DNA of 64,000 bases from Minisyncoccota bacterium (GCA_036405895.1 DASWWS010000002.1:124029-188028); one strand, 5' to 3'. Shown: positions 658 through 50,842, numbered from the stretch's first letter. Program-made: numbers and translations. Notes: generated from the sequence alone by a model not told the origin.

Positions 658-1110
658 TTACCACGCCGGATTCATATTTACTCCGAAACAAGACCAATAC
701 GGTGCATTGCTGTTGCACCCGGTATTTGGTTTTCCTTCAAAGTGCACGAACACCACATATCCTTGGCGATCTACCGTTGTCGCATATTGCATGCCGCAAT
801 TGGTTCCTAAAGGATCTACAGGATATGTAGGCAGGAGATTATTGGTCACCAGCGACTGCATAAAGTTATTATTAACAACCGTATACCCTTCGGTTCCCAC
901 ACATTCGTTTTCAGTGATGGGAGGATATGCGCCGTAGGTGTCATAATAGAACTCAAGCGCCGTCTGGATCTGCTTCATATCGGCGAGACGCCTTGTGTCC
1001 CGTGCTTTCACTCGAGCACTGTTGAGGCTCGCCATCACAACGGATGCCAAAATACCGATCACTGCGATGACTACAAGAAGTTCAATAAGAGTGAGCCCGC
1101 GGTTTTTCAC
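658..1110 (-). CDS. type IV pilin / pseudopilin with prepilin N-terminal cleavage-methylation motif
   Basis: N-terminus MKNRGLTLIELLVVIAVIGILASVV, the class III signal G/LTLIEL. Paralogous to the ORFs at 16537, 17000 and 17546. Confidence 0.8.
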   Translation of the reverse strand: MKNRGLTLIELLVVIAVIGILASVVMASLNSARVKARDTRRLADMKQIQTALEFYYDTYGAYPPITENECVGTEGYTVVNNNFMQSLVTNNLLPTYPVDPLGTNCGMQYATTVDRQGYVVFVHFEGKPNTGCNSNAPYWSCFGVNMNPAW

Positions 1111-1156
1111 AAAAGCAGTATACCGCAGCTTTGGGGGTTGTGGCAGTTTAGAGCCT

Positions 1157-1777
1157 TTATTCAGCAGGAGTGAAGAAGTAAACCGTTTTAAACATTACAA
1201 GTTCTTCATACATTTCATTTTCTACAACGTATTCTTTTCCAAACTGGTTTAGTTCGCTTAAATCAAAATTCTTTGGTATTTGCATTACGACTTTTTCAAA
1301 ATGTTTAAATGCAAGATCAAGTATTTCCTTTCCGGAAGGACTAAAATCTTCGAGAGTAAATTTCTCTTTTTGAGAATAATCAGGTCCGCCCCACGGTGGG
1401 GCTATGAACACTGCTTCCGCCTGAAGCTTTGGGGCTTCTTGGAAGTAGTCGCCAGTGATAAAAGTTACCTTGTCTTCAAGGCCATACACTCTAAGATTGT
1501 TTTTTGCCATTTCAATTCTTTGAGAATCAATTTCGATAGCATAGACATGCTCTGCGTGCTTTGCAAAACCGATTGTATTCCCTCCTATTCCGCAAAAGCC
1601 ATCTACTACAGTTCGAGCTCCGGTCTTTCGAGCATTCTTATCCGCAATATCTTCCGGTCCTACAGAATACAACCCTTCAATATCCGTCTGAATCCCCTCG
1701 TCAAATTTACTGAACTTGTTATATCTTCTGTCCCAGTATTTTTGATATTTTTCTCCAAAAGGATTTTCCTGTTTCAT
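1157..1777 (-). CDS. TGS1-like RNA cap guanine-N2 methyltransferase family protein (SAM-dependent)
   Basis: Motifs VVDGFCGIGGNTIGFA and IAPPWGGPDY match the TGS1/PF09445 signature. The ORF-track start at 1861 (MPPQAIY...) lies inside a repeated promoter-like element, so the internal Met (MKQENPFGEKY) is the more likely start. Confidence 0.6.
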   Translation of the reverse strand: MKQENPFGEKYQKYWDRRYNKFSKFDEGIQTDIEGLYSVGPEDIADKNARKTGARTVVDGFCGIGGNTIGFAKHAEHVYAIEIDSQRIEMAKNNLRVYGLEDKVTFITGDYFQEAPKLQAEAVFIAPPWGGPDYSQKEKFTLEDFSPSGKEILDLAFKHFEKVVMQIPKNFDLSELNQFGKEYVVENEMYEELVMFKTVYFFTPAE

Positions 1778-1812
1778 ATGTATAGTATACCAAAAGAGTT
1801 TGCGGAGTTTCG

Positions 1813-1950
1813 GTTTATAGTCGCTGTCGTTAAGAGACGAATAAATCGCTTGCGGAGGCATTATGTAGTCGCTAACGCTTCTTATAATGCACTGCGCAAA
1901 ATATGGTCGTATCTTCGATACTCCCTATTTTGCGGGCGTTGTGGCAGGAT
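1813..1950. repeat. 135-bp intergenic repeat, copy 1. About 90% identical to 3366-3500.
   Basis: Direct alignment of ...cgcttgcggaggcattat(g/a)tagtcgct(a/g)acgct(t/c)cttataatgcactgcgcaaaatatggtcg... It contains an 8-bp inverted repeat GCATTATA/TATAATGC and TATA(A)T boxes. At its distal end it carries a tRNA-3'-end-like core GCGGGCGTTGTGGCAGG. Confidence 0.8.
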
Positions 1951-1970
1951 GTTGGAACTTATTTAAGCAA

Positions 1971-2447
1971 CTACTCTTCTTTAAATATTCTAGAGTAATC
2001 AGACAACCCGGTATCTTTTAAGTCTTCTTCGATTAAATTCTTCGCTAAATCAAAATTTACAACAAAGCATAAAACTTCCATCGTACCACCCCCAATACTT
2101 CCTCCGTCACAATGACCCAAACCTCTCCATCCGAGAAATTCATTCATCCTACTTTCCAGATTGTGTCGCTTAGTCAAATCATTTTCTGATTCTATTTCAT
2201 CAACCTTGTATTCAATAACAAGCCTTTCTAAAAGTTCATCTGCTACTTCAGTATATCCCTCAATTATTTTCTGATCGTATTCTTTTTGAACTTCTTTTTT
2301 AAAACTTGAGAATATTCCTGAGCTGATTTCTCTCGATTGACCTTCTTCGCCAACCTTACCCCAATGAATAATTCCTGCTCTACCGCTTTTATCCCAAGTT
2401 TCCCAATAGAGTAAGCCGTCTCCAGTTTCTTTATATAGTTTTTCCAT
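1971..2447 (-). CDS. WGR-domain protein
   Basis: N-terminal LLYWETWDKSGRAGIIHWGKVGEEGQSREI...F.S...A...Y.QKIIEGY matches the WGR (W-G-R/K-x-G-x-x-GQ) pattern. The C-terminal ~90 aa has no known family. Confidence 0.55.
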   Translation of the reverse strand: MEKLYKETGDGLLYWETWDKSGRAGIIHWGKVGEEGQSREISSGIFSSFKKEVQKEYDQKIIEGYTEVADELLERLVIEYKVDEIESENDLTKRHNLESRMNEFLGWRGLGHCDGGSIGGGTMEVLCFVVNFDLAKNLIEEDLKDTGLSDYSRIFKEE

Positions 2448-2454
2448 GACAAAA

Positions 2455-2510
2455 TTATATCACGGTATAGCTGCGGGCGTTGTGGCAGAAGTTAGAATCT
2501 TTTTAATCAA
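2455..2510. repeat. Partial copy of the intergenic repeat and tRNA-3'-end-like core (GCTGCGGGCGTTGTGGCAGAAG)
   Basis: Shares CTGCCACAACGCCCGCA with the distal end of repeat copy 1. Confidence 0.6.
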
Positions 2511-2531
2511 TTCCAAATTCTAATAACCTTT

Positions 2532-3335
2532 CTATTTAAAAACCGTATCAATCTCTTTCACCAACCAGCTTCCGAGATTCTCTAGAGTATCCACTATTGT
2601 ATTTTTGTCAGAAGTTGGATTAACGGCAAGCTCTAACGCTTTGTACATTTCTTCCTTTTTCTCTGGATAGTATTTTGAGAATTCTTCATAACAAGGATAG
2701 AGGTCGCGTGTGTATTTCTGGGACCGTTCCATCACAAGCTCAAACCCTGAACGTATAATACGCTTCATAATCCAAGTACATCGACGCTTTATCTCTTCTT
2801 CACTACGCTCTTCTTGCAACCACTCTTTCGTCTTATTGATTTCTCGTTCGATGCCTTCAAAATGTTGAGCTGTATCTACGCCCGGCTTTAGAGCCGGAAG
2901 AGTACTAAAAAGATTGTTACCGTACACGCAGATACTTTGGGTCTTGATCATTATTCGATCCCCTTTCGAGTCTGGTATCTCTTCAAGTGGTACGACGCCT
3001 ATTTCTACTCCGACTATAAATGGAAATTGTTTCTTTACTTTTTCTACAAAATCTTTTGACCATTGGATATCAACGTCATCGTATGACACTGTAACAACAG
3101 CGAAACTGTCTATGTCGGAGATGTTGTTTATCGCTTGCCCCTTCGCTACCGAACCTCTTATATAGACACTGTGCAAATGTTCACCAAGGTGTTTTTGATA
3201 TGCATCTTTGACCATTTCAACCGCGGGCATCCATGCCGCCTGAATCTTTTCTGGTGATGTAGTATTGACGATAAAACCATCGGTATCAGTTTGCAAAAAT
3301 GATCCAATGGCTTGTACTTCGTTTTTCATGTCCAA
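2532..3335 (-). CDS. Nucleotidyltransferase of the aminoglycoside-adenylyltransferase (ANT/AadA-like, NTase + DUF4111-like) family
   Basis: YIRGSVAKGQAINNISDIDSFAVV matches the GS-x9-DxD Pol-beta-superfamily NTase motif. Size and C-terminal helical domain resemble AadA/ANT(9). No experimental basis for the substrate. Confidence 0.65.
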   Translation of the reverse strand: MDMKNEVQAIGSFLQTDTDGFIVNTTSPEKIQAAWMPAVEMVKDAYQKHLGEHLHSVYIRGSVAKGQAINNISDIDSFAVVTVSYDDVDIQWSKDFVEKVKKQFPFIVGVEIGVVPLEEIPDSKGDRIMIKTQSICVYGNNLFSTLPALKPGVDTAQHFEGIEREINKTKEWLQEERSEEEIKRRCTWIMKRIIRSGFELVMERSQKYTRDLYPCYEEFSKYYPEKKEEMYKALELAVNPTSDKNTIVDTLENLGSWLVKEIDTVFK

Positions 3336-3365
3336 ATTGTATCATGGGAAAGCTGCGGAGGTGGG

Positions 3366-3500
3366 TTTATAGTCGCTCTCGCTAAAAACAGAGTGGGTCG
3401 CTTGCGGAGGCATTATATAGTCGCTGACGCTCCTTATAATGCACTGCGCAAAATATGGTCGCACCTACGGTGCTTCCTATTTTGCGGAGGATGTGAGACG
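3366..3500. repeat. 135-bp intergenic repeat, copy 2, upstream of the NTase gene. It ends in a 15-nt copy of the 3' end of the adjacent tRNA (3484-3498).
   Basis: Aligned to 1813-1950. The distal core gcggaggatgtgaga is identical to the reverse complement of the tRNA 3' end at 3694-3708. Confidence 0.8.
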
Positions 3501-3693
3501 CTGAGCTATTCGCCCGCGAGTCTTTGTTTGATCAGTCACCAAACAAAGCTCTGGGCACCGGCTCAGTAGATTCTTCTGCTGAAGAATCATACTTCCGCCG
3601 TTCTCATCTCAACGTAAACCAAAGCAGTTTGGTTTACTCATCCTCCGCGAATAAAAATGGCCCAGATTTCTCTGGGACGCATTTTTATACTCG
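3501..3693. ncRNA. Structured ~190-nt tRNA-associated module A. It consists of a closing stem, three internal hairpins and a bidirectional terminator hairpin.
   Basis: Homologous to 4399-4579. Its hairpins covary with the second copy: GATTCTTC-TGCT-GAAGAATC vs GATTTCTT-TGCTA-AGAAATC, and GTAAACCAAA-GCAG-TTTGGTTTAC vs GCAATGCA-GTT-TGCATTGC. The terminator inner stem reads CCCAGA..TCTGGG here and CCGACC..GGTCGG in the other copy. The two ends are complementary: GCGGAGGATG..CATCCTCCGC. Confidence 0.5.
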
Positions 3694-3779
3694 CGGAGGA
3701 TGTGAGATTCGAACTCACGGGCCTTTAAGGGGCCGACGGTTTAGTAAACCGTTGATTTAAACCACTCATCCAATCCTCC
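3694..3779 (-). tRNA. Type-II (long variable arm) tRNA, Ser-like. The apparent anticodon is ACU, which is unusual.
   Basis: Hand-folded: acceptor GGAGGAT/ATCCTCC, T-arm GTGAG-TTCGAAT-CTCAC, variable arm GGCC-CCTTAAA-GGCC, anticodon stem ACGGT/ACCGT with loop TTACTAA. Discriminator G. No encoded CCA. Confidence 0.65.
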
Positions 3780-3833
3780 AGGACACCAATAAGTGTTTTG
3801 ATATCCTACCATACTCGCCTAAATAGAAAAGAA

Positions 3834-3868
3834 AACAGCCTAACGAGGACCGTCCTCGTTAGGCTGTT
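3834..3868. terminator. GGACNGTCC-core palindromic hairpin (AACAGCCTAACGAGGACCGTCCTCGTTAGGCTGTT) followed by TTTTT
   Basis: Perfect inverted repeat with a T-run. Member of a dispersed family listed in findings. Confidence 0.75.
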
Positions 3869-3880
3869 TTTAAGTACGTA

Positions 3881-4312
3881 TTAGTACTGAGGCTGAGGCT
3901 CGTGCTTCATCAAGCGCATCAGGTGCGAAAGCGAGTATCGGCCGGGACCCTGCACCAAAAGCGGGATGAGGGCTGCAATGAATACGAGGTTCACTTCCCA
4001 TCCGCCGAGGAATTCCATGTTCATCAAATTCTTTACAACAAATGCAGCAACAATCATGACAATAATAAGGAGGAATGAAACAATCTCGGTTCCAATACCC
4101 ACAATGAGCGCCAGACCGCCGATTGTTTCAACAAGCGTCACAATCCATGCCATGAGTCCCGCAAGCGGGAATCCCCATGCAACGAAGCCTTCCGTTACCG
4201 CCTCAATCCCCATGTTGAACTTCTGCAAGCCATGAAGGAAGAAAGCAATACCGACAATAATGCGGACAATCAACAGCGCTGTATTTATTTTGCCTTTGAA
4301 TATATTTCTCAT
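3881..4312 (-). CDS. DoxX-family integral membrane protein
   Basis: 143 aa with four predicted TM helices. LHGLQKF...GG motif typical of DoxX. Confidence 0.6.
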   Translation of the reverse strand: MRNIFKGKINTALLIVRIIVGIAFFLHGLQKFNMGIEAVTEGFVAWGFPLAGLMAWIVTLVETIGGLALIVGIGTEIVSFLLIIVMIVAAFVVKNLMNMEFLGGWEVNLVFIAALIPLLVQGPGRYSLSHLMRLMKHEPQPQY

Positions 4313-4345
4313 GTACTAAAGTGTATCACTGATAGGTATAACAGA

Positions 4346-4376
4346 AAACTAGCAAGGACGGTCCTTGCTAGTTTTT
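4346..4376. terminator. GGACGGTCC-core palindromic hairpin (CTAGCAAGGACGGTCCTTGCTAG) flanked by A/T runs
   Basis: Inverted repeat seen directly. Confidence 0.7.
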
Positions 4377-4398
4377 TATTTTTGCGGAGACGGCGAGA

Positions 4399-4579
4399 AT
4401 TTCTCCCTCGCCTCTCGTTGTGTCAGACACACTTCCTCGGGCTGGTCACCAGCTCAGTAGATTTCTTTGCTAAGAAATCATACTTCCGCTGTTCGAATCT
4501 CACCCGCAATGCAGTTTGCATTGCTCGTCTCCGCGAATAAAAATGGCCCGACATTAGGTCGGACTCATTTTTATACTCG
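4399..4579. ncRNA. Structured tRNA-associated module B, homologous to 3501-3693. It is bounded by a 15-nt copy of the tRNA-Ser 3' end at 4384-4398.
   Basis: See module A. Closing stem GCGGAGACG...CGTCTCCGC. Minus-strand T-arm-like GCGAG-GGAGAAATT-CTCGC. Terminator hairpin at 4531-4582. Confidence 0.5.
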
Positions 4580-4664
4580 CGGAGACGGCGAGATTCGAAC
4601 TCGCGAGGCTGTGACACCTGCCTCCTTAGCAAGGAGGTACAATCGACCACTCTGACACGTCTCC
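4580..4664 (-). tRNA. tRNA-Ser(GCU)
   Basis: Hand-folded: acceptor GGAGACG/CGTCTCC, anticodon stem CCTCC/GGAGG with loop TTGCTAA (anticodon GCT), long variable arm, T-arm GCGAG-TTCGAAT-CTCGC. Confidence 0.85.
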
Positions 4665-4725
4665 AGTACCGCCACTGTATCATGAAAATACAGTTTTTTA
4701 AAGACTACCCTGCTATACTCTATAC

Positions 4726-5025
4726 ATGACCACTACACACAAAGTACTTGTTGGAATTCTTATCATTATTGTTATTGCGCTTCTTGCGCGCTACGTTGTT
4801 TTTAAAGAAAAGTTCGATGAATGGGGTGCAGGACTCCAGCGTATTGAAGACTGGCAGACTGAGTACAAGCAAAAGAACCCAAATGCTTCCAAAGAAGAAA
4901 TGGATGCTGCATTTGAAGCTGGCATGGACAACATCACTGAGTGGAAAGCAGAGTATAAGCGCGATAATCCAGGCGCGACAGATGCCGAGGCGGATGCTGC
5001 ATTTTCCGCAATGTGGAATAACTAA
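4726..5025 (+). CDS. Small membrane-anchored protein with an internal ~28-aa duplication
   Basis: One N-terminal TM helix. Repeats EDWQTEYKQKNPNASKEEMDAAFEAGM and TEWKAEYKRDNPGATDAEADAAFSAMW. Confidence 0.45.
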   Translation: MTTTHKVLVGILIIIVIALLARYVVFKEKFDEWGAGLQRIEDWQTEYKQKNPNASKEEMDAAFEAGMDNITEWKAEYKRDNPGATDAEADAAFSAMWNN

Positions 5026-5041
5026 TTCTATTTACTGATAT

Positions 5042-5626
5042 ATGCAACCAACCGGAAAAATTCGACTTGAGGCATTCAGCGACGGAGTATTCGCTATTGC
5101 CATCACGCTCCTTGCGCTCGAGCTCCATGTCCCCGCCTTTCTTGGGACCACTTTCTTAGGTTCTCTCCACGAACTCATCCCACTGATTCCTTCAATGCTC
5201 ACCTTTGTACTCTCATTTATCACCATTGCAATCTTTTGGGTCAATCACCACCAGCTCACCCAAAACTTTAGCACCATCACCAAGCGGCGCATTCTTTGGT
5301 CAAATATCCTCTTTCTCCTCTTCTTAACCCTCATCCCCTTTGTTACCGCTGCCGTAAGCATCAGCCCGACTGCGCCCTTAGCAGTATTCTTCTACAGTTT
5401 AGTATTGCTTGGTTCATCGCTCTCCTTCACCCTTATGCGCTATTTTGTGCACAAAGGCTGCGGCCAAAGCCATATCCCCATGACCCGTAGCCTCATTGGA
5501 CCAATCGTGTACCTCCTTGCGGTTATTGCTTCGATTTTTTCAGTCTGGATTGCCTATTTTCTCCTTGCTATCCCGGCATTATTCTATTTCCTCCCAAAAG
5601 GGAGCCTCAAAGAGACAGATGAGTAG
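5042..5626 (+). CDS. TMEM175/DUF1211-family putative potassium channel
   Basis: Starts RLEAFSDGVFAIAITLLALE, the family signature, with six predicted TM helices. Confidence 0.7.
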   Translation: MQPTGKIRLEAFSDGVFAIAITLLALELHVPAFLGTTFLGSLHELIPLIPSMLTFVLSFITIAIFWVNHHQLTQNFSTITKRRILWSNILFLLFLTLIPFVTAAVSISPTAPLAVFFYSLVLLGSSLSFTLMRYFVHKGCGQSHIPMTRSLIGPIVYLLAVIASIFSVWIAYFLLAIPALFYFLPKGSLKETDE

Positions 5627-5727
5627 TCCCCATATCTATTTTTACTCAGTCGTGTTATAGTGGAAAAGTTGTAATGTGCTCCTTTGTTAAAGGTCCGTTG
5701 CAAAATAATAGTAAGTAACAACCAATA

Positions 5728-6027
5728 ATGAACAATAAAGTATTCGTCGGTAGCCTCTCATTCAATACCGACCAGAATGGATTAGCAGCATACTTCGCTT
5801 CAGTCGGCACTGTAACAAGTGCAAACATCATCACTGATAAGATGACTGGACGCAGCAAAGGTTTCGGCTTCGTAGAATTTTCTTCTGACGCTGAAGCTCA
5901 GGCTGCTGTTGATAAACTCAACAACACTGAACTCGACGGCCGCACACTTTTCGTTGACCTTGCACAGCCTCGCGCTGACAAGCCAGCAGGTGGCAACCGC
6001 GAGCGCACTGGTGGCTACAACCACTAA
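5728..6027 (+). CDS. RRM-type RNA-binding protein (glycine-rich C-terminus)
   Basis: RNP-2 VFVGSL and RNP-1 KGFGFVEF motifs. Confidence 0.85.
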   Translation: MNNKVFVGSLSFNTDQNGLAAYFASVGTVTSANIITDKMTGRSKGFGFVEFSSDAEAQAAVDKLNNTELDGRTLFVDLAQPRADKPAGGNRERTGGYNH

Positions 6028-6034
6028 TCCTCCA

Positions 6035-6062
6035 AAAAACCAGTCTTCGGACTGGTTTTTTG
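6035..6062 (+). terminator. Intrinsic terminator AAAAAACCAGTCTTCGGACTGGTTTTTT
   Basis: GC hairpin plus T-run immediately after the RRM gene. Confidence 0.8.
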
Positions 6063-6118
6063 TTTGCACAGGTTTTTCTATTATTTTCCTTCCCTTGCCG
6101 TGATACACTACTTATACA

Positions 6119-6600
6119 TGAATCGACACATCATCAAAAACACGCTCTTTGCACTGGTCAGTATCATTTTTCTTCTCAGCGCTATAGGAAAGTTTGCCGA
6201 CCGCGAGGCAATTGTCGAACTCTTTGCCAATGCTGGCATGGCAGACTATCTTATCCGCTTTGCAGTGATACAGCTGATTATTGTTGCGTGCCTGTGGTAC
6301 AAGCCGCTTCGCAGTCTTGGGGTATTGGTTGCAAGCGCATTCCTCGGAGGGGTGATTGTCATGATGATTAACACAGACTGCAGCCCTCTCTCGGCAGGAC
6401 TCACACTTATCATGCTGTGGATCGCGTACAAGCTTGAATGGTGGGGATACTGGAATCACTACACTGACACCTGTTCCTGCGGGTGGTGCAAGCTCCATGG
6501 AAAAGGGAAGGGCAAAAAAGCCGTCTGCCCCAATCCAAAAGACGAATGCGACTGCGGCAACCACTGTAAATGCCCCAAGGGCAAGTGCACCTGTTCGTAA
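6119..6600 (+). CDS. DoxX-like 4-TM membrane protein fused to a C-terminal Cys-rich metallothionein-like tail
   Basis: The internal start MNRHIIKNTLF is preferred because the terminator ends at 6062. The tail CSCGWCKLHGKGKGKKAVCPNPKDECDCGNHCKCPKGKCTCS has 10 Cys in 42 aa. Confidence 0.5.
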
Positions 6601-6622
6601 TTGTGCGCTACAATAAAAGAAT

Positions 6623-8794: not shown

Positions 8795-8795
8795 A

Positions 8796-8826
8796 AAAGC
8801 CACACAATATTACTGTGTGGCTTTCT
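8796..8826. terminator. Bidirectional terminator AAAAAGCCACACAATATTACTGTGTGGCTTTCT between convergent genes
   Basis: Hairpin flanked by A-run and T-run. Confidence 0.7.
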
Positions 8827-8835
8827 CTCATTGTG

Positions 8836-9576: not shown

Positions 9577-9650
9577 CCGCTCTTAGCTCAGTTGGTTAGA
9601 GCGCCGAGCTTATACCTCGGTGGTCCATGGTTCGAATCCATGAGGGCGGA
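9577..9650 (+). tRNA. tRNA-Ile(UAU)
   Basis: Hand-folded: acceptor CCGCTCT/AGGGCGG (one G-U pair), D-arm GCTC-AGTTGGTTA-GAGC, anticodon stem CCGAG/CTCGG with loop CTTATAC, T-arm CATGG-TTCGAAT-CCATG. Confidence 0.8.
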
Positions 9651-9744
9651 CATTAAGTAAACAAATATGCAGTATGCCTCTGAGGCAATGGCGTGTAGCG
9701 TTTCGACCCCAGGGAGAGGCGGACAAGTGCTATACTGTACACAT

Positions 9745-10215
9745 ATGAATGAATTTGTAGCAAAGAAACTCGGCGAAGTGCTCGCCTTTAACCAAGTCGG
9801 CACGGACACCTATGAAAAAGGAAAAGAAGCACTCATCGCAGTACTGGGAGCTGAACGTTTTGCGGATATTGAAGACAAGAACCGCATTCACGGAGAAGCA
9901 GTGATGAAGATCGCGACCGACGCGGGCATGATCGACACAACGCTTGCAAAAGCCGAAAAGACCGGAGAGAAGCTCAAGGCTATGCGCGACCTCTATGTTG
10001 GTGACCAATGGGACAATGCCACAGAGCTGATGGAATGGAGCGGATTTTTCGAAGGCGCAGCAATCGTGCACTGGGCGCTGGTGCGCGGTGCGGCAGAAGG
10101 CATGAATGACGAAACCCTCCTCGAACTTTCAAACGAAGGAGTGAATTGGCACTATGAGCTTTTGGAAATGGCTGAAAGCGAACTCGGCACCACCGGACAG
10201 AACAAGGCTTCCTAA
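9745..10215 (+). CDS. Hypothetical protein
   Basis: The ORF-track start at 9667 overlaps the tRNA, so the internal Met (MNEFVAKKLGEV) is more likely. No family recognised. Confidence 0.45.
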   Translation: MNEFVAKKLGEVLAFNQVGTDTYEKGKEALIAVLGAERFADIEDKNRIHGEAVMKIATDAGMIDTTLAKAEKTGEKLKAMRDLYVGDQWDNATELMEWSGFFEGAAIVHWALVRGAAEGMNDETLLELSNEGVNWHYELLEMAESELGTTGQNKAS

Positions 10216-10219
10216 TAAT

Positions 10220-10281
10220 CAGAAGGACCGTCCTTCTGAAAATAAAAACAACCTAACGAGGACCGTCCTCGTTAGGTTGTT
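10220..10281. terminator. Two tandem GGACCGTCC-core hairpins (CAGAAGGACCGTCCTTCTG and AACAACCTAACGAGGACCGTCCTCGTTAGGTTGTT) between convergent genes
   Basis: Perfect inverted repeats, the second followed by TTTTT. Confidence 0.75.
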
Positions 10282-10289
10282 TTTATTGT

Positions 10290-12188
10290 TTAAAGCTCGA
10301 TTTTCTTTAATGGAATGCCGTGAGCGGAAATAATTGCTTCATATTCCGGCTGTTCGAGCGTTTCCACTTCGATTAGCTTTGCGGTGATTGCTTCGAGCAC
10401 ACCCTTGTGTTCGGTAAGAACAGTGCGGGCACGCTCAAATCCTTCTTTCATGATGCGCTGCACTTCGGAGTCGACAAGTGCACTAGTCTGCTCTGAATAT
10501 TCTTTTCCTTTCACTCCTTCGCCGAACATTGCGCGGCCTCCGTCGTTTTCAAGGGCAAGCGGGCCGATGGCATCGCTCATCCCCCATCGTGTCACCATGG
10601 CGCGTGCAAGCGCGGTTGCAACCTGAAGGTCGTTTGAAGGACCGGTTGTCACGTCCCCAAAGATTGATTCTTCTGCAACGTATCCTGCAAGCGACATTGC
10701 AATGTCGTCGAGATATTCTTTCTTGGTGGTAAGCTTTCGCTCTTCAAGCGGAAGCTTCAGCGTGTACCCACCGGCGCGCCCTCGTGCAACAATAGAAACT
10801 TTGTGCACCGGGTCAGCATCCGGAAGAACTGATGCAACAAGCGCATGCGCTGCTTCATGATACGCCGTGATTTTCTTTTCTTTCTTTGTCAGCAAATGGC
10901 TCTTGCGCTCAGGCCCGATCATCACTTTTTCAATGGAGCGTACAAGGTCAAACTGCGATATCTTCTTTCGATTTTCGCGTGCTGCCAAGATTGCACCTTC
11001 GTTCATTAATGAGTAGAGGTCGGCTCCGGAGAATCCGGGTGTGCGCTCTGCTATCACCTTGAGATTCACGTCTTCTGCAAACGGCTTTTTGGTGCTGTGC
11101 ACATTCAAAATGTCTTCGCGGTCGCGACGGTCTGGAAGGTCAAGCATCACTCGGCGGTCAAATCGGCCTGGACGCAACAGTGCTGGGTCCAATACATCGC
11201 TTCGGTTCGTTGCCGCCATCACGATTACCTTGTCGTTCGGTTCAAAGCCGTCCATCTCCACCAATATTTGGTTGAGTGTCTGTTCTCGCTCGTCGTTTCC
11301 ACCGCCATATCCGCCTCCGCGTACGCGTCCTACCGCATCAATTTCATCGATAAAAATAATGGACGGTGCTGCGCGCTTTGCCATCTTGAAAAGGTCGCGC
11401 ACGCGCGATGCGCCCACACCGACAAACATCTCAACAAATTCTGATCCTGAAAGATGGAAGAACGGCACACTTGCCTCCCCCGCTACAGCGCGAGCCAAGA
11501 GCGTCTTCCCTGTTCCTGGTGCACCGGCGAGCAATACTCCTTTTGGAATGCGCGCTCCGATATCCAAAAACTTTTTTGGATTCTTCAAAAAGTCCACAAT
11601 TTCTTTGAGTTCTTCCTTGGCTTCGCGCGCACCTGCAACATCTTTGAATGTTACCCTGTTTGTCGTATCGCTTGGGTCAGTGATGCGCGCTTTTGACTGC
11701 CCGAAATTAAATGCCTGCATGCCAGCACCCTTTGCCTGGCGTGTAAGCATCCAAAAAAAGAATCCAATCAATACTACCGGCAAAAGTATTGGGAGAATGG
11801 TAAGGAAAAAGAATGCGAGGCCTGATGCGCTGGCAACAGTAATGTCGACTGCGCTGATGCGAGGCTCTTCAACACCATATGCTGCCAATGTTTCCACCAA
11901 TGAAGCACTTGGTTCTTTTTTGCTTTCAAGAATTGTCTCGTCTGTTTTTGTAACAGTGAGCGCTTGGTCGTCGATGACAATGCTCTTCACCTCCCCTGCC
12001 TGCACAAGGCGTGCAACTTCTGAAAGGGTCACCACTTCGTTCTTTTCTGTCCCCATACCAGAGACAACAGAGTAGCCGGCAGTAAGGAGTGCGAAGATAA
12101 GGAGGGTTGAAAATATATAGGAAGAAAGAGAGCGCTTGGGAGGCGTCTTTTTTATAGGGTTCGGTGTAGGGATTTCTTGTTTGGACAT
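10290..12188 (-). CDS. ftsH: ATP-dependent zinc metalloprotease FtsH
   Basis: Walker A GAPGTGKT, second region of homology, and HEAAHA zinc motif. 632 aa. Confidence 0.95.
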
Positions 12189-12455
12189 AGGCTTTATTAT
12201 ACATAAAAACGATAAAAACGCCTTTTAGGGGGTATCGACCTCCAGGTTACTAAATATTTTTCAGGGTATCGCCTCACAAATCACTAAGCATAATTCTTCG
12301 CTCCACTCGAATTCTGCCAAGTGTTCGCGAGCCCGGCTCGGTTCCGCCATAGGCGGATACCTGCGCCTTTTCGATACCCACGCAAGACAAGCAGTTGCCC
12401 TGTTCCATCTCCACCTAAAAAACAAAAAACGCCCAAGGGCGCTAATGTTGTTACA
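12189..12455 (-). promoter_or_regulatory. Structured region between ssrA and ftsH with TATAAT 7 nt upstream of the ftsH ATG, repeated CGATACCC motifs, and the ssrA intrinsic terminator (12423-12446)
   Basis: Minus strand reads ...GCGCCCTTGGGCGC-TTTTTTGTTTTTT, a terminator. Three CGATACCC motifs follow. GTATAATAAAGCCT then ATG. Confidence 0.5.
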
Positions 12456-12841
12456 GGTGGAGATGGGGGTATCGAAACCCCGTGCAAATGATCACGAACA
12501 AGTACTTCTCCATGCGTAGTACGATTTAATTGTTAAGACAGAATCTCAAAACCGTACAAAACGATTCATGTCCGAGCCTCGATTGTTTCGGAGTACTGAC
12601 GAGACACGCAGTACTTCCTACGTTCGATGAATGTTGCCGCGACTACGTTATCGAACATCACGTAGAGCGACACCGGATTGACCTAAATTTAGGCGAATGC
12701 CGGAGCGAAGTTTCCAAAATATGGAGACTTCACTGATGCTGTGCTGTTGCCAGGTAAGCGTTCGGACGAATTTTACGAGATACGTCCATTCTCGGCATGC
12801 ATACAGGCCCGATACATCAAATGTCGAAACCTTTCATCCCC
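12456..12841 (-). ncRNA. ssrA: tmRNA (ssrA)
   Basis: Minus strand 5' end GGGGAUGAAAGGUUUCGAC matches the tmRNA 5' consensus. The GCAUGCCGAG...CUCGUAAAA PK1 region is almost identical to E. coli tmRNA. A tag reading frame ends ...GNFAPAFA-UAA (stop at 12689-12691). The 3' T-arm-like GGGGT-TTCGATA-CCCC is followed by acceptor strand CATCTCC-A-CC, which pairs with the 5' GGGGATG using one G-U. It is adjacent to smpB. Confidence 0.8.
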
Positions 12842-12863
12842 AAAGTTGCAATACAGAGCAACT

Positions 12864-13008
12864 TTGGCGCCAGGAGTCGTTTTCGACATTTGTCGAAAAC
12901 TATCGTGGTGCAAAAATTACTGTGCCCTGCTGAAGCTCCATAACAAATTTGGCGCCAGGAGATTTTTTTAGCTTCGCTAAAAAAATTCGTGGTGCAAAAG
13001 CGCCAGGA
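12864..13008. repeat. Tandem 85-bp repeat, 2.1 copies. Each unit is GGCGCCAGGAG-hairpin-TCGTGGTGCAAAA, lying between smpB and ssrA.
   Basis: Unit 1 hairpin GTTTTCGACA-TTT-GTCGAAAAC and unit 2 hairpin TTTTTTAGC-TTC-GCTAAAAAA show compensatory changes between the conserved flanks. Confidence 0.7.
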
Positions 13009-13032
13009 GTTCTATTTGGAAAATCACACTCT

Positions 13033-13473
13033 CTATTGAGCCCCTTCGCGCCTTAGCTCCCGATCAAGGTCGCGCGCTTTGAGCGTTTCTCGTTTGTCGA
13101 AGTTCTTTTTCCCTTTCGCTATTGCGATTTGTACCTTTACGATACTCCCTTTATTATACAACGATATAGGCACTACCGTCAAACCCTTGCTCGAAAGCGC
13201 CCGTAACAAATCATAGAGCTCTTTTTTATTCACTAAAAGCTTTCGGGTGCGATACGGATCATACGCCGAAGAAACATTCTTCTCCTGCCAGGCAGGAATA
13301 TGAGCGCCAAGAAGATAGAGTTCTCCCCCGAGCACTTGCACATAGGCCCCATTGAGGCTGCCGTGATTTGCTTTGAGGGATTTCACTTCAGTACCGAGAA
13401 GCTGTATGCCCGCTTCGAGTGTTTCCTCGAAAGAGTAGTCATGCGATGCTTTTTTATTCCGGATAAATTCCAT
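13033..13473 (-). CDS. smpB: SsrA-binding protein SmpB
   Basis: KKASHDYSFEETLEAGIQLLGTEVKSLK...RTRKLLVNKKE matches the SmpB family. Start moved to MEFIRNKK, since the ORF-track N-terminal extension is hydrophobic junk. Confidence 0.9.
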   Translation of the reverse strand: MEFIRNKKASHDYSFEETLEAGIQLLGTEVKSLKANHGSLNGAYVQVLGGELYLLGAHIPAWQEKNVSSAYDPYRTRKLLVNKKELYDLLRALSSKGLTVVPISLYNKGSIVKVQIAIAKGKKNFDKRETLKARDLDRELRREGAQ

Positions 13474-13557
13474 ACTAGACCAATCGTACCATGTATGAAC
13501 AAATATTGACATATCCGCATAACATGCGATAATAGTGACAAAACAAAATTGATAACT

Positions 13558-13923
13558 ATGCAAAGTGAACAAAAAACCCGGTATTCCGACTCTGAACTAA
13601 GAGAGTTCAAAGCGCTCATAGTGGAAAAACTAAAAAGCAGCCGCGAAGAATTAGCAGACTTTTTAAGCCAGATGAGCATCGACAACGAAAAAGTTTCGTT
13701 GAGTGACTACAGTGCCGTAACAGAGGAAAAAGAATACCTTGGCAAGCAGGCGGGCCGCAAGAAAACATTTATTCAAAACCTGGAAAATGCACTGATACGC
13801 ATTGAAAACAAGACGTACGGTATCTGCCGGATAACAGGTAATCTGATACCGAAAGGGCGTTTACTTGCAGTACCTCACGCTACGTTATGCATGGAGGCAA
13901 AATTGAAACAATCAGCCGCATAA
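13558..13923 (+). CDS. DksA/TraR-family transcription factor-like protein
   Basis: Coiled-coil N-terminus and C-terminal C-x-x...C zinc-finger-like region (YGICRITGNLIPKGRLLAVPHATLC). Only a partial Cys set. Confidence 0.5.
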   Translation: MQSEQKTRYSDSELREFKALIVEKLKSSREELADFLSQMSIDNEKVSLSDYSAVTEEKEYLGKQAGRKKTFIQNLENALIRIENKTYGICRITGNLIPKGRLLAVPHATLCMEAKLKQSAA

Positions 13924-13940
13924 CAACACTCATCGAAAAA

Positions 13941-13975
13941 AGCCAAACCGCATGCGGTTTGGCTTTTGTTTTTAC
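13941..13975. terminator. Bidirectional terminator AAAAAAGCCAAACCGCATGCGGTTTGGCTTTTGTTTTT
   Basis: Perfect hairpin flanked by A- and T-runs between convergent genes. Confidence 0.8.
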
Positions 13976-14559
13976 AGCTCAAGATCAATTCCAATTCCGA
14001 GCATTACGGCTTTTGGTCCGACAGTTGCCGAAACATTAAACAATCCAAGTGTGTACTGAGTACGAATACCGGTCACCGCTTCCGTTTGGCTATAGAGCCC
14101 GAGCGAAAGCTTCTCTCCTACTCCGTACATCACCGACGTCATTTGGAAAAATCCATACGGGCGAGAATAATACGGATTGGTGTACAGCATAAACTTCCCT
14201 TTCTGGCTCTCCTCTTGTGCATGCGATTCAAAATACGCATATGCATTAAGGCTTGCACTGGTGCGGCCCCGAGCAAAATCAATACCCGGGCCAAGTGAAA
14301 GTTCAACATAGTTATCGCCTGGTGCAAATGCAATCAAGGGCCCAAGAGAGACGCCCAGAAGCCCTGGTTCATTTACAACAAATCCAAATACCCCAACTCC
14401 TCGCTTGTTTGTATGAGCAAACGATGCCCATTGAAAAGTTTCAAGACCTTTTGCATCAAACTGTTTGGTTGCTTGAGCTTCGGCGCTTACAAGAGTTTGT
14501 TGCGCCATTGCTGTACTTGTTGCCACCAAGGCAAGAAGTACTGTGAGTAATTTCTTCAT
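13972..14559 (-). CDS. Secreted beta-rich hypothetical protein
   Basis: Signal peptide MKKLLTVLLALVATSTAMA. Alternating hydrophobic pattern. Confidence 0.5.
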   Translation of the reverse strand: MKKLLTVLLALVATSTAMAQQTLVSAEAQATKQFDAKGLETFQWASFAHTNKRGVGVFGFVVNEPGLLGVSLGPLIAFAPGDNYVELSLGPGIDFARGRTSASLNAYAYFESHAQEESQKGKFMLYTNPYYSRPYGFFQMTSVMYGVGEKLSLGLYSQTEAVTGIRTQYTLGLFNVSATVGPKAVMLGIGIDLEL

Positions 14560-14617
14560 TTTCCTTTGTTAATTTGCGTATATTATAGCACAAATTGAAC
14601 AAAAAATCAAGTATATA

Positions 14618-15391
14618 TTATATGGTGTACTCTCCTATTCGCACTCTCTTAATACGGTACGCAAGGGCTGGAATACCCGCTGTTGCTCCTACAACTTCCG
14701 CAAGGGCTCTCATATATGTACCCGAAGTTGCAGTAATACGAATCGTGATAAAAGGAATTTCTTTTTCTCCCTCTTTTGCAATTACTTCCATCCACTTTTT
14801 TATAATTTCTTCTTGCCGAAAGTCTCCTGCAACATTTTGTATAACAGGCAGTGTTTCCTCAATACCTTCTGCAAGTGTTCTGTATTCTATTCCCTGCAAT
14901 TGAACACCGGTAACCTGCACTTTCTTTGTTGGCACCCTTACCACTGTTCCCGCTCTCGCATGAACAAAAAGAGGCATTCCGTCTACCGTTCGAGAGGAAT
15001 ACAGAGGATATGCAAGTTCAGTTACCCCTTCCAAACTTTTAACAGCATTCTCAATAGATTCTTTTACGATAGCTGTGTCTGTATTAATTGCCGTAACAAG
15101 GCCCAGCATATCCGCCGTATCAGTGCTCACCCCTAATAACACCGTGAGCTCATAGGTTTTATCTAGTCCTAAAAGGTCATCTTTATAAAATCGAGCATCG
15201 CCCTTAAGGATAATCACCACTCCTTCGGCCATTGGATCGAGCCTTCCGGCATAGGTAAGCTTGATTGCATCCGTTAGACCCTGTTCACTGCGAAAGCGCT
15301 CTAAAAGGACTGCAAGTGTCTCGCCGGGGTGCTTCCACACAGCAAAAACATCTTGACTATTTGGGCCTTTTTGGGTATCATGTGAAGACAT
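14618..15391 (-). CDS. truB: tRNA pseudouridine(55) synthase TruB
   Basis: YAGRLDPMAEGVV (the GxLDP catalytic Asp motif). Start moved to the Met before FAVWKHPGETL. Confidence 0.85.
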   Translation of the reverse strand: MSSHDTQKGPNSQDVFAVWKHPGETLAVLLERFRSEQGLTDAIKLTYAGRLDPMAEGVVIILKGDARFYKDDLLGLDKTYELTVLLGVSTDTADMLGLVTAINTDTAIVKESIENAVKSLEGVTELAYPLYSSRTVDGMPLFVHARAGTVVRVPTKKVQVTGVQLQGIEYRTLAEGIEETLPVIQNVAGDFRQEEIIKKWMEVIAKEGEKEIPFITIRITATSGTYMRALAEVVGATAGIPALAYRIKRVRIGEYTI

Positions 15392-15409
15392 TATTGTACT
15401 ACTATAGCT

Positions 15410-15925
15410 TTGAAGGAACGAATCAACAAACAAATACACGCATCAGAACTTCGCGTCGTTGACGAGGAGGGTGAAAACAAAGGAGTCATGTCTCTGACAG
15501 AGGCATTGGCTTTGGCTGAAAGCCTGGGCGTGGACTTGATTGAGACCGGGCCGAATGCGCGCCCCCCTATTGCAAAGCTTATGGAGTTCGGTAAGTACCA
15601 GTACGAACAGAAGAAAAAGCTCCAAAAAGCACGCACAGGAGCTAAGCCTACGGAAACAAAGTCCATTCAGATTAAGATTGGTACCGGCGACCACGACCTC
15701 GAGCTGAAGGCAAAAACCGCCAGCAAGTGGCTCAAGGAAGGACACCGCATCAAAGTAGAGCTTTTCCTTCGAGGACGCTCAAAGGGCATGGAAGAGCCAT
15801 TTTTAAAGGAACGACTCGACCGGGTCTTGCATTTTATCACCGAACAGTATAAGATTGCGGAACCACATAAGCGCTCTCCTAAGGGTTTGGCTATCGTTAT
15901 CGAACGAGACAGAGCAGCAAAATAG
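15410..15925 (+). CDS. infC: translation initiation factor IF-3
   Basis: IF3 N- and C-domains. Part of the infC-rpmI-rplT synteny. The true start may be a non-AUG codon upstream. Confidence 0.85.
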   Translation: MKERINKQIHASELRVVDEEGENKGVMSLTEALALAESLGVDLIETGPNARPPIAKLMEFGKYQYEQKKKLQKARTGAKPTETKSIQIKIGTGDHDLELKAKTASKWLKEGHRIKVELFLRGRSKGMEEPFLKERLDRVLHFITEQYKIAEPHKRSPKGLAIVIERDRAAK

Positions 15926-15934
15926 ACATAATAT

Positions 15935-16126
15935 ATGGCAGCAAAGACCAACAAATCATATACAAAACGCCTTAAGCTTACCAAAACAGGTAAGATTATT
16001 GGACGAAAGCCAGGATTTAACCACTTTAATGCAAAGCAGTCACGAGTACACCAGCTCAACGGCAAGCGAGGCGTCGAATTCCCAATGACTCCGAAAGAGA
16101 TTGGCCTTTTTATCCCTCATCGATAA
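15935..16126 (+). CDS. rpmI: 50S ribosomal protein L35
   Basis: MAAKTNKSYTKRLKLTKTGKI... family match and synteny. Confidence 0.9.
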   Translation: MAAKTNKSYTKRLKLTKTGKIIGRKPGFNHFNAKQSRVHQLNGKRGVEFPMTPKEIGLFIPHR

Positions 16127-16144
16127 TAATTTTAATATACCTAT

Positions 16145-16492
16145 ATGACACGAGTAAAACGAGGAACAATTGCAAACAAGCGCCGAAAGAACGTATTAGC
16201 CCAGGTAAAGGGGTACCGTTTTGGCCGCAGCACCAAGGAGCGAATGGCAAAGGATGCTATTGCCCACGCTGGGACCTACGCATTTGCACACCGCCGCGAC
16301 AAGAAAAGCGACAAGCGCCGATTGTGGCAGGTGCAGATCAATGCAGCAGTTCGCGAGCTTGGCCTCACCTACTCTGTGTTTATCGATAAGCTCAAGAAAG
16401 CGAACATCGAAGTAGACCGCAAAATCCTCTCTACTCTTGCACAAAACAGCCCTGCATCATTCAAGCGAATCTTTGATACAGTAAATAAATAA
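16145..16492 (+). CDS. rplT: 50S ribosomal protein L20
   Basis: MTRVKRGTIANKRRK... family match. Confidence 0.9.
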   Translation: MTRVKRGTIANKRRKNVLAQVKGYRFGRSTKERMAKDAIAHAGTYAFAHRRDKKSDKRRLWQVQINAAVRELGLTYSVFIDKLKKANIEVDRKILSTLAQNSPASFKRIFDTVNK

Positions 16493-16510
16493 GAATAATA
16501 AAAAATCTCC

Positions 16511-16540
16511 CGTTAAACGGGAGATTTTTTATTATTTTAT
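16511..16540. terminator. Bidirectional terminator AAAAATCTCCCGTTAAACGGGAGATTTTTT
   Basis: Hairpin plus T-run between convergent rplT and the pilin gene. Confidence 0.8.
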
Positions 16541-16998
16541 GATGGCCAGTACCCTTCAATAAAACAAGAGTACCCGGAATTTGTGTGATTCTGGTCACAG
16601 CGATTGTTCGGTGCCCAGTTTTCAAATATAGTAAAAATAATGTAGCCCTGATTACTGTTTGTCGGAGCATACTGAAGACGGCACTGTATATTAGCGGGAT
16701 CTTTGGGGTACGCCGGAAGAAACCCCTCTGTCACTAAGCTCTGCATAAAGTTATTGTTCGTTGTTGTATACCCCTCAGTTCCCACACATTCGTTTTCAGT
16801 ATAGTTGGGATAGTATCCATACTTATCGTAATAAAACTCAAGCGCTTTTTGTATTTCCCGAATAGTTGAAACGCGCTGTGCATCACGTCCTTTTGCCCGA
16901 GCACTGTTTAACGACGCGAGAACAACTGATGCCAAAATGCCGATCACTGCGATGACGACGAGGAGTTCGATGAGGGTGAAACCGTTTTGTTTTTTCAT
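16537..16998 (-). CDS. type IV pilin-like protein (prepilin)
   Basis: GFTLIELLVVIAVIGILASVV prepilin motif. Paralogous to 658..1110 and 17546..18016, sharing FYYDKYGYYP...ENECVGTEGYT. Confidence 0.8.
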   Translation of the reverse strand: MKKQNGFTLIELLVVIAVIGILASVVLASLNSARAKGRDAQRVSTIREIQKALEFYYDKYGYYPNYTENECVGTEGYTTTNNNFMQSLVTEGFLPAYPKDPANIQCRLQYAPTNSNQGYIIFTIFENWAPNNRCDQNHTNSGYSCFIEGYWPS

Positions 16999-16999
16999 A

Positions 17000-17524
17000 T
17001 TACCAATTTGTTCGCTCTGCATTCATCATCGCTCCTGGGGTAAACACTCCCGCTGTACACTGTGTCCCAGACCGGTCAGGGTCATAGAAACCAAAGCTTG
17101 CTGGCAAGGGCGGACACGAGACGCTTTCAATGGTTTGGTGGGCAATAAACTTGTAATCAATGCCATCTGAATTATATAAATAGCAGCCGTGCGTGGTAAC
17201 AGGCTTTGGGTCAAGTGGGAGGACTGGTATGTAGGTTGGAGCCAGGTTTGGAATATATCCGGTCGCACCCATGGTACCATATGAACCATAGGCAGAACAG
17301 TTTCCCCGCCATCCTCCTCCGCTCGAAGGATACACACCATAGTCTGCCATATACAGCTCAAGTGCATTCCTGACCTGTGTCAAATCAGCCTTTCTTTTTG
17401 CATCTCTCGACTTTGCCCGAGCACTGTTTAACGACGCGAGAACAACTGATGCCAAAATGCCGATCACTGCGATGACTACTAACAGTTCAATAAGGGTGAA
17501 ACCTCTTTGGCGAGCGCGAAACAT
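17000..17524 (-). CDS. type IV pilin-like protein (prepilin), divergent C-domain
   Basis: MFRARQRGFTLIELLVVIAVIGILASVV. A 64-bp segment is identical at the nucleotide level to 16895-16958. Confidence 0.75.
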   Translation of the reverse strand: MFRARQRGFTLIELLVVIAVIGILASVVLASLNSARAKSRDAKRKADLTQVRNALELYMADYGVYPSSGGGWRGNCSAYGSYGTMGATGYIPNLAPTYIPVLPLDPKPVTTHGCYLYNSDGIDYKFIAHQTIESVSCPPLPASFGFYDPDRSGTQCTAGVFTPGAMMNAERTNW

Positions 17525-17545
17525 GTATCCTCAGTATATCAGCAA

Positions 17546-18016
17546 TTACGAAGGCCACTCGCCTTCCATGAAGCAGGAATATCCTACATCCGTATGTTCC
17601 TGATTGCAGCGGCCGTTTGGCGGCAGTTTCTCAAACTTCACAAAAACAATGTAACTTTGATTGTTAGCATTGTATACGCCGTATTGCACATTGCAGTTTA
17701 CATTGTTGGGATCCTTTGGGTATGCCGGCAAAAACCCTTCGGTGACCAAGCTCTGCATAAAATTATTGTTCACTGTTGTGTACCCTTCCGTACCGACGCA
17801 TTCATTTTCCGTCTCGTGCGGATAATACCCATATTTGTCATAATAAAATTCCAGTCCTTTTTGTATTTCACGGATGGTGGCTGCCCGCTGCGCATCGCGT
17901 GCCTTTCCTCTCGCACTGTTCAAGGATGTCATCACAACGGATGCCAAAATCCCAATCACTGCGATGACGACCAAAAGTTCAATAAGGGTGAAGCCTCGAC
18001 TGGCATTAGATTTCAT
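17546..18016 (-). CDS. type IV pilin-like protein (prepilin)
   Basis: MKSNASRGFTLIELLVVIAVIGILASVV. Closest paralog of 16537..16998. Confidence 0.8.
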   Translation of the reverse strand: MKSNASRGFTLIELLVVIAVIGILASVVMTSLNSARGKARDAQRAATIREIQKGLEFYYDKYGYYPHETENECVGTEGYTTVNNNFMQSLVTEGFLPAYPKDPNNVNCNVQYGVYNANNQSYIVFVKFEKLPPNGRCNQEHTDVGYSCFMEGEWPS

Positions 18017-18033
18017 GTAAAGAGTATAGCAAA

Positions 18034-49921: not shown

Positions 49922-49922
49922 A

Positions 49923-50390: not shown

Positions 50391-50391
50391 A

Positions 50392-50841: not shown

Positions 50842-50842
50842 A

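Follow-up and report, generated by a model that had tools for sequence, protein, structure and literature searches.

The stretch of DNA considered here, 64,000 nucleotides (nt) long (GCA_036405895.1 DASWWS010000002.1:124029-188028; the whole of it is called the window), comes from a metagenome-assembled genome (MAG) of an uncultured member of Candidatus Paceibacterota, part of the Candidate Phyla Radiation (CPR)/Patescibacteria, and carries four complete type IVa-like pilin genes, here called A, B, C, and D (Table 1). All four are open reading frames (ORFs) on the minus strand; they lie at the positions originally given and, as the original prediction held, share an N-terminal peptide, and in each of them a Pfam search returns a single match, N_methyl PF07963, at 31–41 bits (cut-off 21.2). 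The database records (HEY0980292/312/313/314, Candidatus Paceibacterota MAG, 276-kb contig) call them “type II secretion system protein.” The peptide common to all four reads G/FTLIELLVVIAVIGILASVV...SLNSAR.K.RD, the slash separating leader from mature protein. Following the Gly of a short basic leader, the consensus is [F/L]TLIELLVVIAVIGILASVV[M/L]xSLNSARxKxRD, a segment of ~33 residues with the hydrophobic alpha1-N. The leaders are MKNRG/L, MKKQNG/F, MFRARQRG/F, and MKSNASRG/F, and Glu stands at +5 in all four; the class III signal (basic leader ending in Gly, hydrophobic residue at +1, Glu at +5) is therefore present throughout, with A having Leu rather than Phe at +1. For B, the most likely start is the ATG at 16998, 1 nt past the stop codon of C; a longer ORF to 17022 runs into C.

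Table 1. Pilin genes, repeat tract, candidate signals, and pilus machinery in the window (positions counted from its first nucleotide; aa, amino acids)
Feature	Position	Strand	Description
Pilin gene A	658..1110	minus	150 aa; GTG start; leader MKNRG; Leu at +1; A/B/D-type four-cysteine globular domain; ORF, Pfam N_methyl, NCBI HEY0980292.1
Pilin gene B	16537..16998	minus	153 aa; A/B/D-type domain; ORF, Pfam N_methyl, NCBI HEY0980312.1
Pilin gene C	17000..17524	minus	174 aa; globular domain unrelated to A/B/D; ORF, Pfam N_methyl, NCBI HEY0980313.1
Pilin gene D	17546..18016	minus	156 aa; A/B/D-type domain; first gene after map; ORF, Pfam N_methyl
N-terminal block of A	1006..1098	minus	Gly-1 and first 30 mature codons
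N-terminal block of D	17903..17995	minus	
65-nt identical tract, B copy	16892..16956	minus	codons V10 to K31 of mature protein; exact run
65-nt identical tract, C copy	17412..17476	minus	exact run, offset 520 from B copy
TATACT box of D	18023..18028	minus	within TGCTATACT, 6 nt upstream of ATG; leaderless-type promoter candidate
TATACT box of C	17533..17538	minus	8 nt upstream of ATG
TATACT box of A	1117..1122	minus	6 nt upstream of GTG
Perfect 21-bp-stem hairpin	16494..16536	.	between B and convergent rplT; candidate bidirectional terminator
Type IV pilus machinery	49436..54373	minus	PilB-like ATPase 52628-54373; PilC-like platform 50843-52048; three minor-pilin-like genes 49436-50841; Pfam T2SSE/MshEN, T2SSF, N_methyl and motif scan

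Past the shared segment, the proteins divide as predicted, three having a common core and the fourth an unrelated C-terminal domain. A, B, and D are 56–74% identical in amino-acid sequence (B versus D, 74%), with the motif FYYD.YG.YP..TENECVGTEGYT..NNNFMQSLVT... and four conserved cysteines, whereas C is 22–26% identical to them. C-type proteins occur in Kaiserbacteria, Doudnabacteria, Nomurabacteria, Falkowbacteria, and others, at 50–70% identity over >90% of the length; the A/B/D-type domain has a much narrower distribution. Profile searches of the PDB, with the A/B/D family profile and with C alone, gave matches confined to the alpha1 helix of type IVa pilins, GspG, and geopilin, and no PDB sequence matched the globular domains beyond that helix. 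AlphaFold2 models of D (predicted local distance difference test score, pLDDT, 86) and C (pLDDT 85) are lollipop-shaped, with a helix at 11–62 and then a small beta domain of 3 strands, and their top Foldseek matches in the PDB are pilins or pseudopilins, at weak scores (E about 0.1). We infer C to be a candidate core, and possibly the major, pilin, with A, B, and D as lineage-specific alternatives or partners.

The start of A deserves separate mention. Its orthologues are P0006 and P0122, and the latter, in the genome of a relative (L007), carries an extended leader, MKNRGLLPKNFNNKISDG/FTLIE. A itself has a GTG start (1096–1110) and Leu for Phe at +1. Given the extended leader of P0122, the “MKNRG/L” start of A may be derived, either by an in-frame deletion or through a different cleavage site.

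The four genes are not equally similar at the nucleotide level. Over the best 90 nt, B and C are 93% identical, and each of the five other pairs is 78–81% identical; this is below the ~85% over ~90 bp originally given for the other two copies. The 64-bp identity that had been placed at 16895–16958 and 17413–17476 does exist as an exact run, but it is 65 nt long, and on the B side it had been drawn 2–3 nt off register. Its borders are abrupt, with 6 mismatches in the preceding 27 nt and divergence at once afterwards. An expectation for such runs comes from the codon usage of 15 confident genes in the window and 20,000 simulations of an identical peptide, which predict 10–12 identical codons, with the longest run at about 9–10 nt. 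No simulated run exceeded 32 nt, against 65 nt for B–C, and 21 consecutive identical codons have an analytic P of 6e-12. Where residues agree within the first 36 codons, B and C have a common codon at 27 of 34 positions; the other pairs do so at 15–17 of 30–32, about equal to the fraction in the rest of the genes. Overall, codons are identical at 27 of 34–35 identical residues for B–C and at 15–19 of 31–36 for the other pairs, whose runs are 17–21 nt (P 0.004–0.04), a modest excess.

The simplest account of these figures would be purifying selection only, with all of the nucleotide identity arising from an invariant class III signal and alpha1-N peptide and no recombination. It draws support from the peptide, identical or nearly so in all copies, and from A and D, whose resemblance to the others (runs of 17–21 nt, 78–81% identity) is about what an identical peptide plus common codon usage or ancestry would give. 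We attribute the 78–81% identity among most copies to protein-level selection, combined with codon usage and ancestry that the copies have in common. The 65-nt identity of B and C is another matter, as its probability under codon usage places it beyond what selection can explain. Selection, raised at the outset as a possible full explanation, is thus, with codon usage or ancestry added, about adequate for A and D and contradicted for B and C.

An identical repeat in a MAG could also be made by the assembler, which may have homogenised or mis-joined two similar blocks, and conserved repeats are where assemblers err. We compared the window with Logan contigs (k=31) from several runs of one SRR114491xx series, found by exact-protein look-up. 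All of the contigs of this organism examined are base-for-base identical to the window. Those coming from map and D (L001–L006) stop at 17447, 30 nt inside the C copy of the tract, and those coming from rplT and B (L172/L175) stop at 16921, 30 nt inside the B copy. Because the stops fall exactly 30 nt inside each end, where the de Bruijn path branches, the tract must be a real repeat. This independent check covers the tract save its central 5 nt (16922–16926), a gap that an assembly artefact could still invoke; with contigs from several samples ending at both expected points and otherwise equal to the window, we regard an artefact as extremely improbable. No sequence variants of D or B appear among the samples from which these contigs come, and no ongoing population-level variation was seen in the contigs examined.

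Related genomes provide controls for the B–C tract. In L007, which has secY-adk-map upstream and rplT-rpmI-infC downstream, an adjacent pilin pair has 5 differences in 42 codons, yet its nucleotide identity is 60% and its longest identical run is 11 nt. The sister genome L159/L160 (GCA_049317285.1) carries B′, 2 residues different from B, and C′, about 88% identical to C. Although their peptide is the same, B′ and C′ have different nucleotides at 17 of the 65 tract positions, and the B–C identity is thus specific to the lineage of the window. Over the same positions, B differs from B′ at 14 and C from C′ at 12, and B from C at 0. Moreover, B and B′ are 24% diverged over the N-terminal 93 nt, where no amino acid changes, and 12% over the remaining 351 nt (Fisher P = 0.007). 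Such an excess would be expected if the block had been overwritten in at least one lineage. These comparisons bear on the account by selection only as well: in L007 and L159, genes whose encoded peptides are the same or almost so have just 60–75% nucleotide identity, and the excess divergence of B and B′ is confined to the N-terminal block. Together with the improbability of the B–C run, they make it quite improbable that selection acted alone.

The tract has both marks of gene conversion: it exceeds the expectation from peptide and codon usage, and within it the paralogs are closer to each other than to their orthologues. Since the run is beyond codon-usage expectation, is absent from the sister pair, and is an authentic repeat, a recent, short gene conversion between the adjacent paralogs C and B appears well supported. 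We envisage that, between tandem paralogs 520 nt apart, a non-reciprocal homologous exchange would have left the tract. In the N-terminal block, A and D agree together against B at several sites; with the 12 and 14 tract differences given above, this mildly favors C as the possible donor and B as the recipient.

Evidence on longer time scales comes from the slot between map (or a gene in its place) and rplT, whose content varies among relatives at the species or genus level (nucleotide identity to the window of 77–80% in map, 87–91% in infC, and 96% in rplT). The window has D-C-B. L159/L160 have an E-type pilin followed by C′ and B′; in L007, a secreted protein of 1296 aa is followed by E and next by a B-like gene; L161/L162 have C alone; in L168, E adjoins rplT; and in L170/171/174 and L173, C adjoins rplT, and the contig ends within the N-terminal block. 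In L165, a single gene follows map and is succeeded by the same terminator that follows B in the window. The leader of this gene matches that of D at 19 of 24 nt and that of C at 9 of 24, and its first informative synonymous sites are D-like to codon 14 and C-like from codon 15. It looks like the product of a crossover inside the conserved core, which would have put a D-like leader on a C-type body.

Two further observations concern the slot. The contig ends “...VVIAVIGILASVV” (L170/L171/L174) and “ILAGVVLASLNSARAKSRD” (L173) represent three further relatives in which assembly breaks in a pilin N-terminal block beside rplT, as would be expected if those genomes hold paralogs with at least 31 identical nt. 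In L007 (1617–5507) and L168 (3120–4496), a very large protein without a Pfam match stands where D would be, immediately following map and ahead of the pilins; the L007 protein (1296 aa) has an N-terminal signal/transmembrane segment and no prepilin motif.

The pattern recurs in other Patescibacteria. A search for relatives by full-length alignment was dominated by the FTLIELLVV motif and returned mostly Planctomycetota/Verrucomicrobiota pseudopilins; a query with the C domain only gave Patescibacteria loci. From 244 prepilin N-termini, we retained 77 genes in 47 non-redundant loci with the first 33 residues at least 75% identical to B. Identical N-terminal runs of at least 30 nt are found in 27% of within-locus pairs (median run 17, maximum 92) and in 0.28% of between-organism pairs (median run 8). 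Some individual cases are clear mosaics: in L093, sequences identical over 92 nt then diverge abruptly, and the C-terminal domains are 35% identical; L094, L108, and L130 are similar (C-terminal domain identity <40%). Given the differing pilin sets between map and rplT and the long identical N-terminal runs in these other clusters, the conserved block is probably a recombination substrate for pilin gene turnover in the slot over evolutionary time. Over such times, it could act as a homology patch for the gain, loss, and reshuffling of pilins between map and rplT.

The pilin genes stand where the secY-adk-map operon ends, away from the pilus machinery, with rplT, rpmI, and infC on the other side. 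The spacing is tight: 17 nt from map to D, 21 nt from D to C, and 1 nt from the stop of C to the start of B (TAAT ATG). A TATACT box precedes D, C, and A, and 15 of the 39 TATACT sites in the window stand 6–10 nt before an ORF of at least 100 aa, including pilB, tpiA, and adk; we read the boxes as candidate leaderless-type promoters. Upstream of B, no promoter-like box of its own was seen, and because its start is also 1 nt past the C stop, B is probably translationally coupled to C. Thus, with boxes at D, C, and A, B abutting C, and a terminator after B, the genes seem to fall into three distinct units that may each be expressed, namely D, the C–B pair, and A.

The box has a wider occurrence. 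In the form (TG)CTATACT it lies 6–10 nt upstream of many minus-strand starts, for example 54373, 47658, 45288, 28022, 19408, 18016, 17524, 1777, and 1110, with pilB, tpiA, recJ, adk, and the pilins among the genes. This suggests that leaderless or near-leaderless transcripts may be common in this genome and that the true starts of adk (19408) and recJ (45288) may lie inside their longest ORFs.

The expression units also bear on a more dramatic possibility, that of programmed high-frequency variation, in which direct repeats would drive deletion, duplication, or cassette exchange and so switch the globular domain, as in Neisseria pilE/pilS or with Moraxella Piv. There is something to recommend it. 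The 65-nt identical direct repeats lie 520 nt apart, relatives carry differing pilin sets in one slot, one of their genes looks chimeric, and CPR episymbionts contact their hosts by type IV pili (PMC9894109, PMC11623550). Nevertheless, each of the four is a full-length gene that has a start codon of its own, a leader, and an intact N terminus, and none is a 5′-truncated silent cassette; being complete genes, three with a promoter-like box and one coupled, none of the four would be a silent cassette. A search for the G-quadruplex (G4) motif (G3+N1-7 x4) found none on either strand of the 64-kb window. All pilin copies are in direct orientation, with no inverted copy, and the sole inverted repeat at 15–20 kb is the terminator hairpin. 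No recombinase was found among the neighboring genes scanned. Further, the contigs of several samples equal the window, and the differences at the locus separate species-level relatives (map about 78% nucleotide identity), not strains. Programmed switching is, in our judgment, very improbable.

Past the N-terminal block, the A/B/D triplet has 92 sites at which B and D agree against A, versus 43 and 45 for the other two patterns. Five consecutive sites in the ENECVGTEGY motif unite A and B against D, a run not significant after correction. This site-pattern test gives no support for mosaicism inside the A/B/D globular domain. As far as these alignments tell, the recombination homogenizes the constant region and does not vary the exposed domain. 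A through D would then form a repertoire of alternative or co-assembling pilins, rather than one expressed gene with silent donors.

The machinery that would assemble these pilins lies in a type IV pilus cluster at about 47.7–57.3 kb, where the PilB-like protein matches T2SSE at 4e-122 and the minor-pilin-like genes have an N terminus different from that of A, B, C, and D. We propose that, thanks to the shared N terminus, all paralogs could be processed by a single prepilin peptidase and then extracted and packed into the filament core by a single PilB/PilC machine. Very strong purifying selection on the N terminus would follow from one such set of proteins handling all paralogs. Two other features of this region stand apart from the pilin question. 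First, three tandem minus-strand genes without a Pfam match (54471–55667, 55672–56445, and 56450–57301) lie just upstream of pilB and have blocks in common (55624–55938 versus 56402–56716), with 69 nt that are 96% identical across a stop/start junction and 239 nt that are 84% identical; this is another paralog pair of the pilus cluster with a near-identical segment. Second, ComEC lies at 41.2–42.7 kb, and within 39807–42685 it (Competence and DUF4131 domains) adjoins a separate gene of the metallo-beta-lactamase fold, a few kb from the pilus cluster. The pair is consistent with pilus-dependent DNA uptake.

Taken together, we consider it likely that these are ordinary pilin paralogs with a selection-held N terminus, one B–C conversion, block-mediated turnover of genes in the slot, and several potentially expressed units. 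This is ordinary pilin-family evolution; no programmed switch of the Neisseria or Moraxella type is indicated, and the locus reveals no new mechanism. Recombination-driven pilin variation, the interpretation first offered for the identical 5′ blocks, survives in part. The B–C conversion tract, the block divergence of B and B′, the L165 gene, and the turnover of the slot all speak for recombination; the similarity of A and D is about what an identical peptide with codon usage and ancestry gives, and the recombination seen does not vary the exposed domain.

Several points weigh against this combined account. First, of the ORFs scanned in the window, none matched a Peptidase_A24 prepilin peptidase. 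Second, the naming of a major pilin among four copies is a matter of deduction. Third, the differences of 12/65 (from the C orthologue of L159) and 14/65 (from its B orthologue) do not fix the direction of conversion. Fourth, the L165 chimera draws on a 24-nt leader and three synonymous sites, in a relative whose map is 77% identical to that of the window. Fifth, the contrast of within-locus and between-organism pairs is partly one of genome-specific codon usage, and the pairs are non-independent. Finally, the 12-codon core VIAVIGILASVV has 8 codons invariant across the four genes, where 0.5 would be expected, and 7 of these 8 are also present in the B-like gene of L007, another species. This invariance could stem from ancestry, older conversions, or codon-level constraint. 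A rival account posits a functional element at the nucleotide level, for instance an RNA structure or a regulatory target, that lies within the 5′ coding region and is conserved for itself. The invariant codons would suit such an element, but the L159 and L161 orthologues change 12–14 of 65 positions with the peptide unchanged. Exact-pattern scans with a degenerate 29-mer of the core gave 0 matches in 185,579 species genomes and 241 million metagenome records, and those with a degenerate 35-mer gave none in species genomes or JGI metagenomes; the nucleotide block is accordingly lineage-specific. We consider a nucleotide-level element highly improbable.

The locus shows one Paceibacterota genome keeping several complete pilins on a shared N-terminal scaffold and, if the account by conversion is right, recombination of the scaffold's coding block between paralogs. 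For CPR/Patescibacteria episymbionts, no organelle of host contact is better known than the type IV pilus, which is built from highly diverse pilins. A stronger version, which we rate as unlikely but worth stating, is that the N-terminal block may be a portable homology handle by which a single fixed slot, probably a highly expressed one, at the end of the ribosomal-protein/secY-adk-map operon gains, loses, or exchanges whole globular domains. Were this so, related episymbionts would differ mainly in their pilin heads, a recombination route to changed host or surface specificity, and the B–C tract, the L165 gene with D leader and C body, and the contig breaks in the N-terminal blocks of relatives would be snapshots of the process. 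The locus would matter more if read-level data revealed frequent cassette exchange. For annotation, there is a practical consequence, as the identical blocks break short-read assemblies exactly at this locus. No report of gene conversion in CPR pilins came up in a search of the literature; a preprint on a “novel pilus system in CPR” deals with unrelated donor-strand-exchange pili.

The window holds other repeats and features as well. Palindromic hairpins of one family, nearly identical to each other (CTAACGAGGACCGTCCTCGTTAG or CTAGCAAGGACGGTCCTTGCTAG, then T-runs), follow genes at 3823–3872, 4332–4376, 10236–10285, 28042–28086, 42718–42763, and 61045–61089; the family is probably a shared intrinsic-terminator or repetitive extragenic palindromic (REP)-like element. 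Two tRNA-Ser genes (3693–3779 and 4579–4664; ARAGORN anticodons ACT and GCT) lie in ~170-nt units (3551–3724 and 4442–4610) that are 80–82% identical, including tRNA-flanking sequence, which looks like a local duplication. ARAGORN also reports a tRNA-Ile with anticodon TAT (UAU) at 9577–9651; a UAU anticodon is an uncommon bacterial way of reading AUA. Finally, a direct repeat of 132 nt, 83% identical (1812–1943 versus 3364–3495), lies in or near the intergenic regions flanking two small genes.

How do these pilins compare with known systems? In general plan, they resemble type IVa pilins and GspG-like pseudopilins (Neisseria PilE, Pseudomonas PilA, and Geobacter PilA-N), with the same leader ending in Gly, Phe at +1, Glu at +5, an alpha1-N helix, a lollipop fold (predicted here), and PilB/PilC genes in the same window. 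They differ in having globular domains with no PDB sequence match and a weak fold match, in the Leu at +1 of A, and in the location of the genes apart from the machinery. With Neisseria pilE/pilS, they have in common non-reciprocal recombination between pilin paralogs. There, however, one gene is expressed, the silent copies are promoterless and 5′-truncated, a G4 element is present, and the variable 3′ part is converted, whereas here, the copies are complete, no G4 motif is found, and the converted tract is in the constant 5′ part. The Q/I pilin inversion of Moraxella bovis/lacunata likewise joins a constant 5′ pilin segment to alternative 3′ domains. That inversion needs inverted copies and an adjacent site-specific recombinase (Piv); our locus has direct copies only and no recombinase among the scanned neighbors.

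The closest functional analogue is found in Haloferax volcanii, which has six pilins with a conserved H-domain (PMC4371748). As here, several complete paralogs have one N-terminal hydrophobic segment and diverged exposed domains and are scattered from the assembly genes, and in Haloferax each is able to function as the major pilin, with differing adhesion properties. The Haloferax pilins are archaeal, PibD-processed, and experimentally characterized, whereas those described here are known from sequence and include a nucleotide conversion tract. At the level of the locus, the closest analogue is the pilin island of Pseudomonas aeruginosa, where variable pilA alleles, with or without accessory genes, reportedly occupy one constant site flanked by pilB and a tRNA gene. 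Both have a fixed slot with conserved flanks and differing pilin sets, and in both a conserved 5′ segment is a likely crossover site. In our case, map and rplT form the flanks, as many as three pilin genes are present in the slot, at least three domain families are represented, and the comparison is among species-level relatives, not strains.

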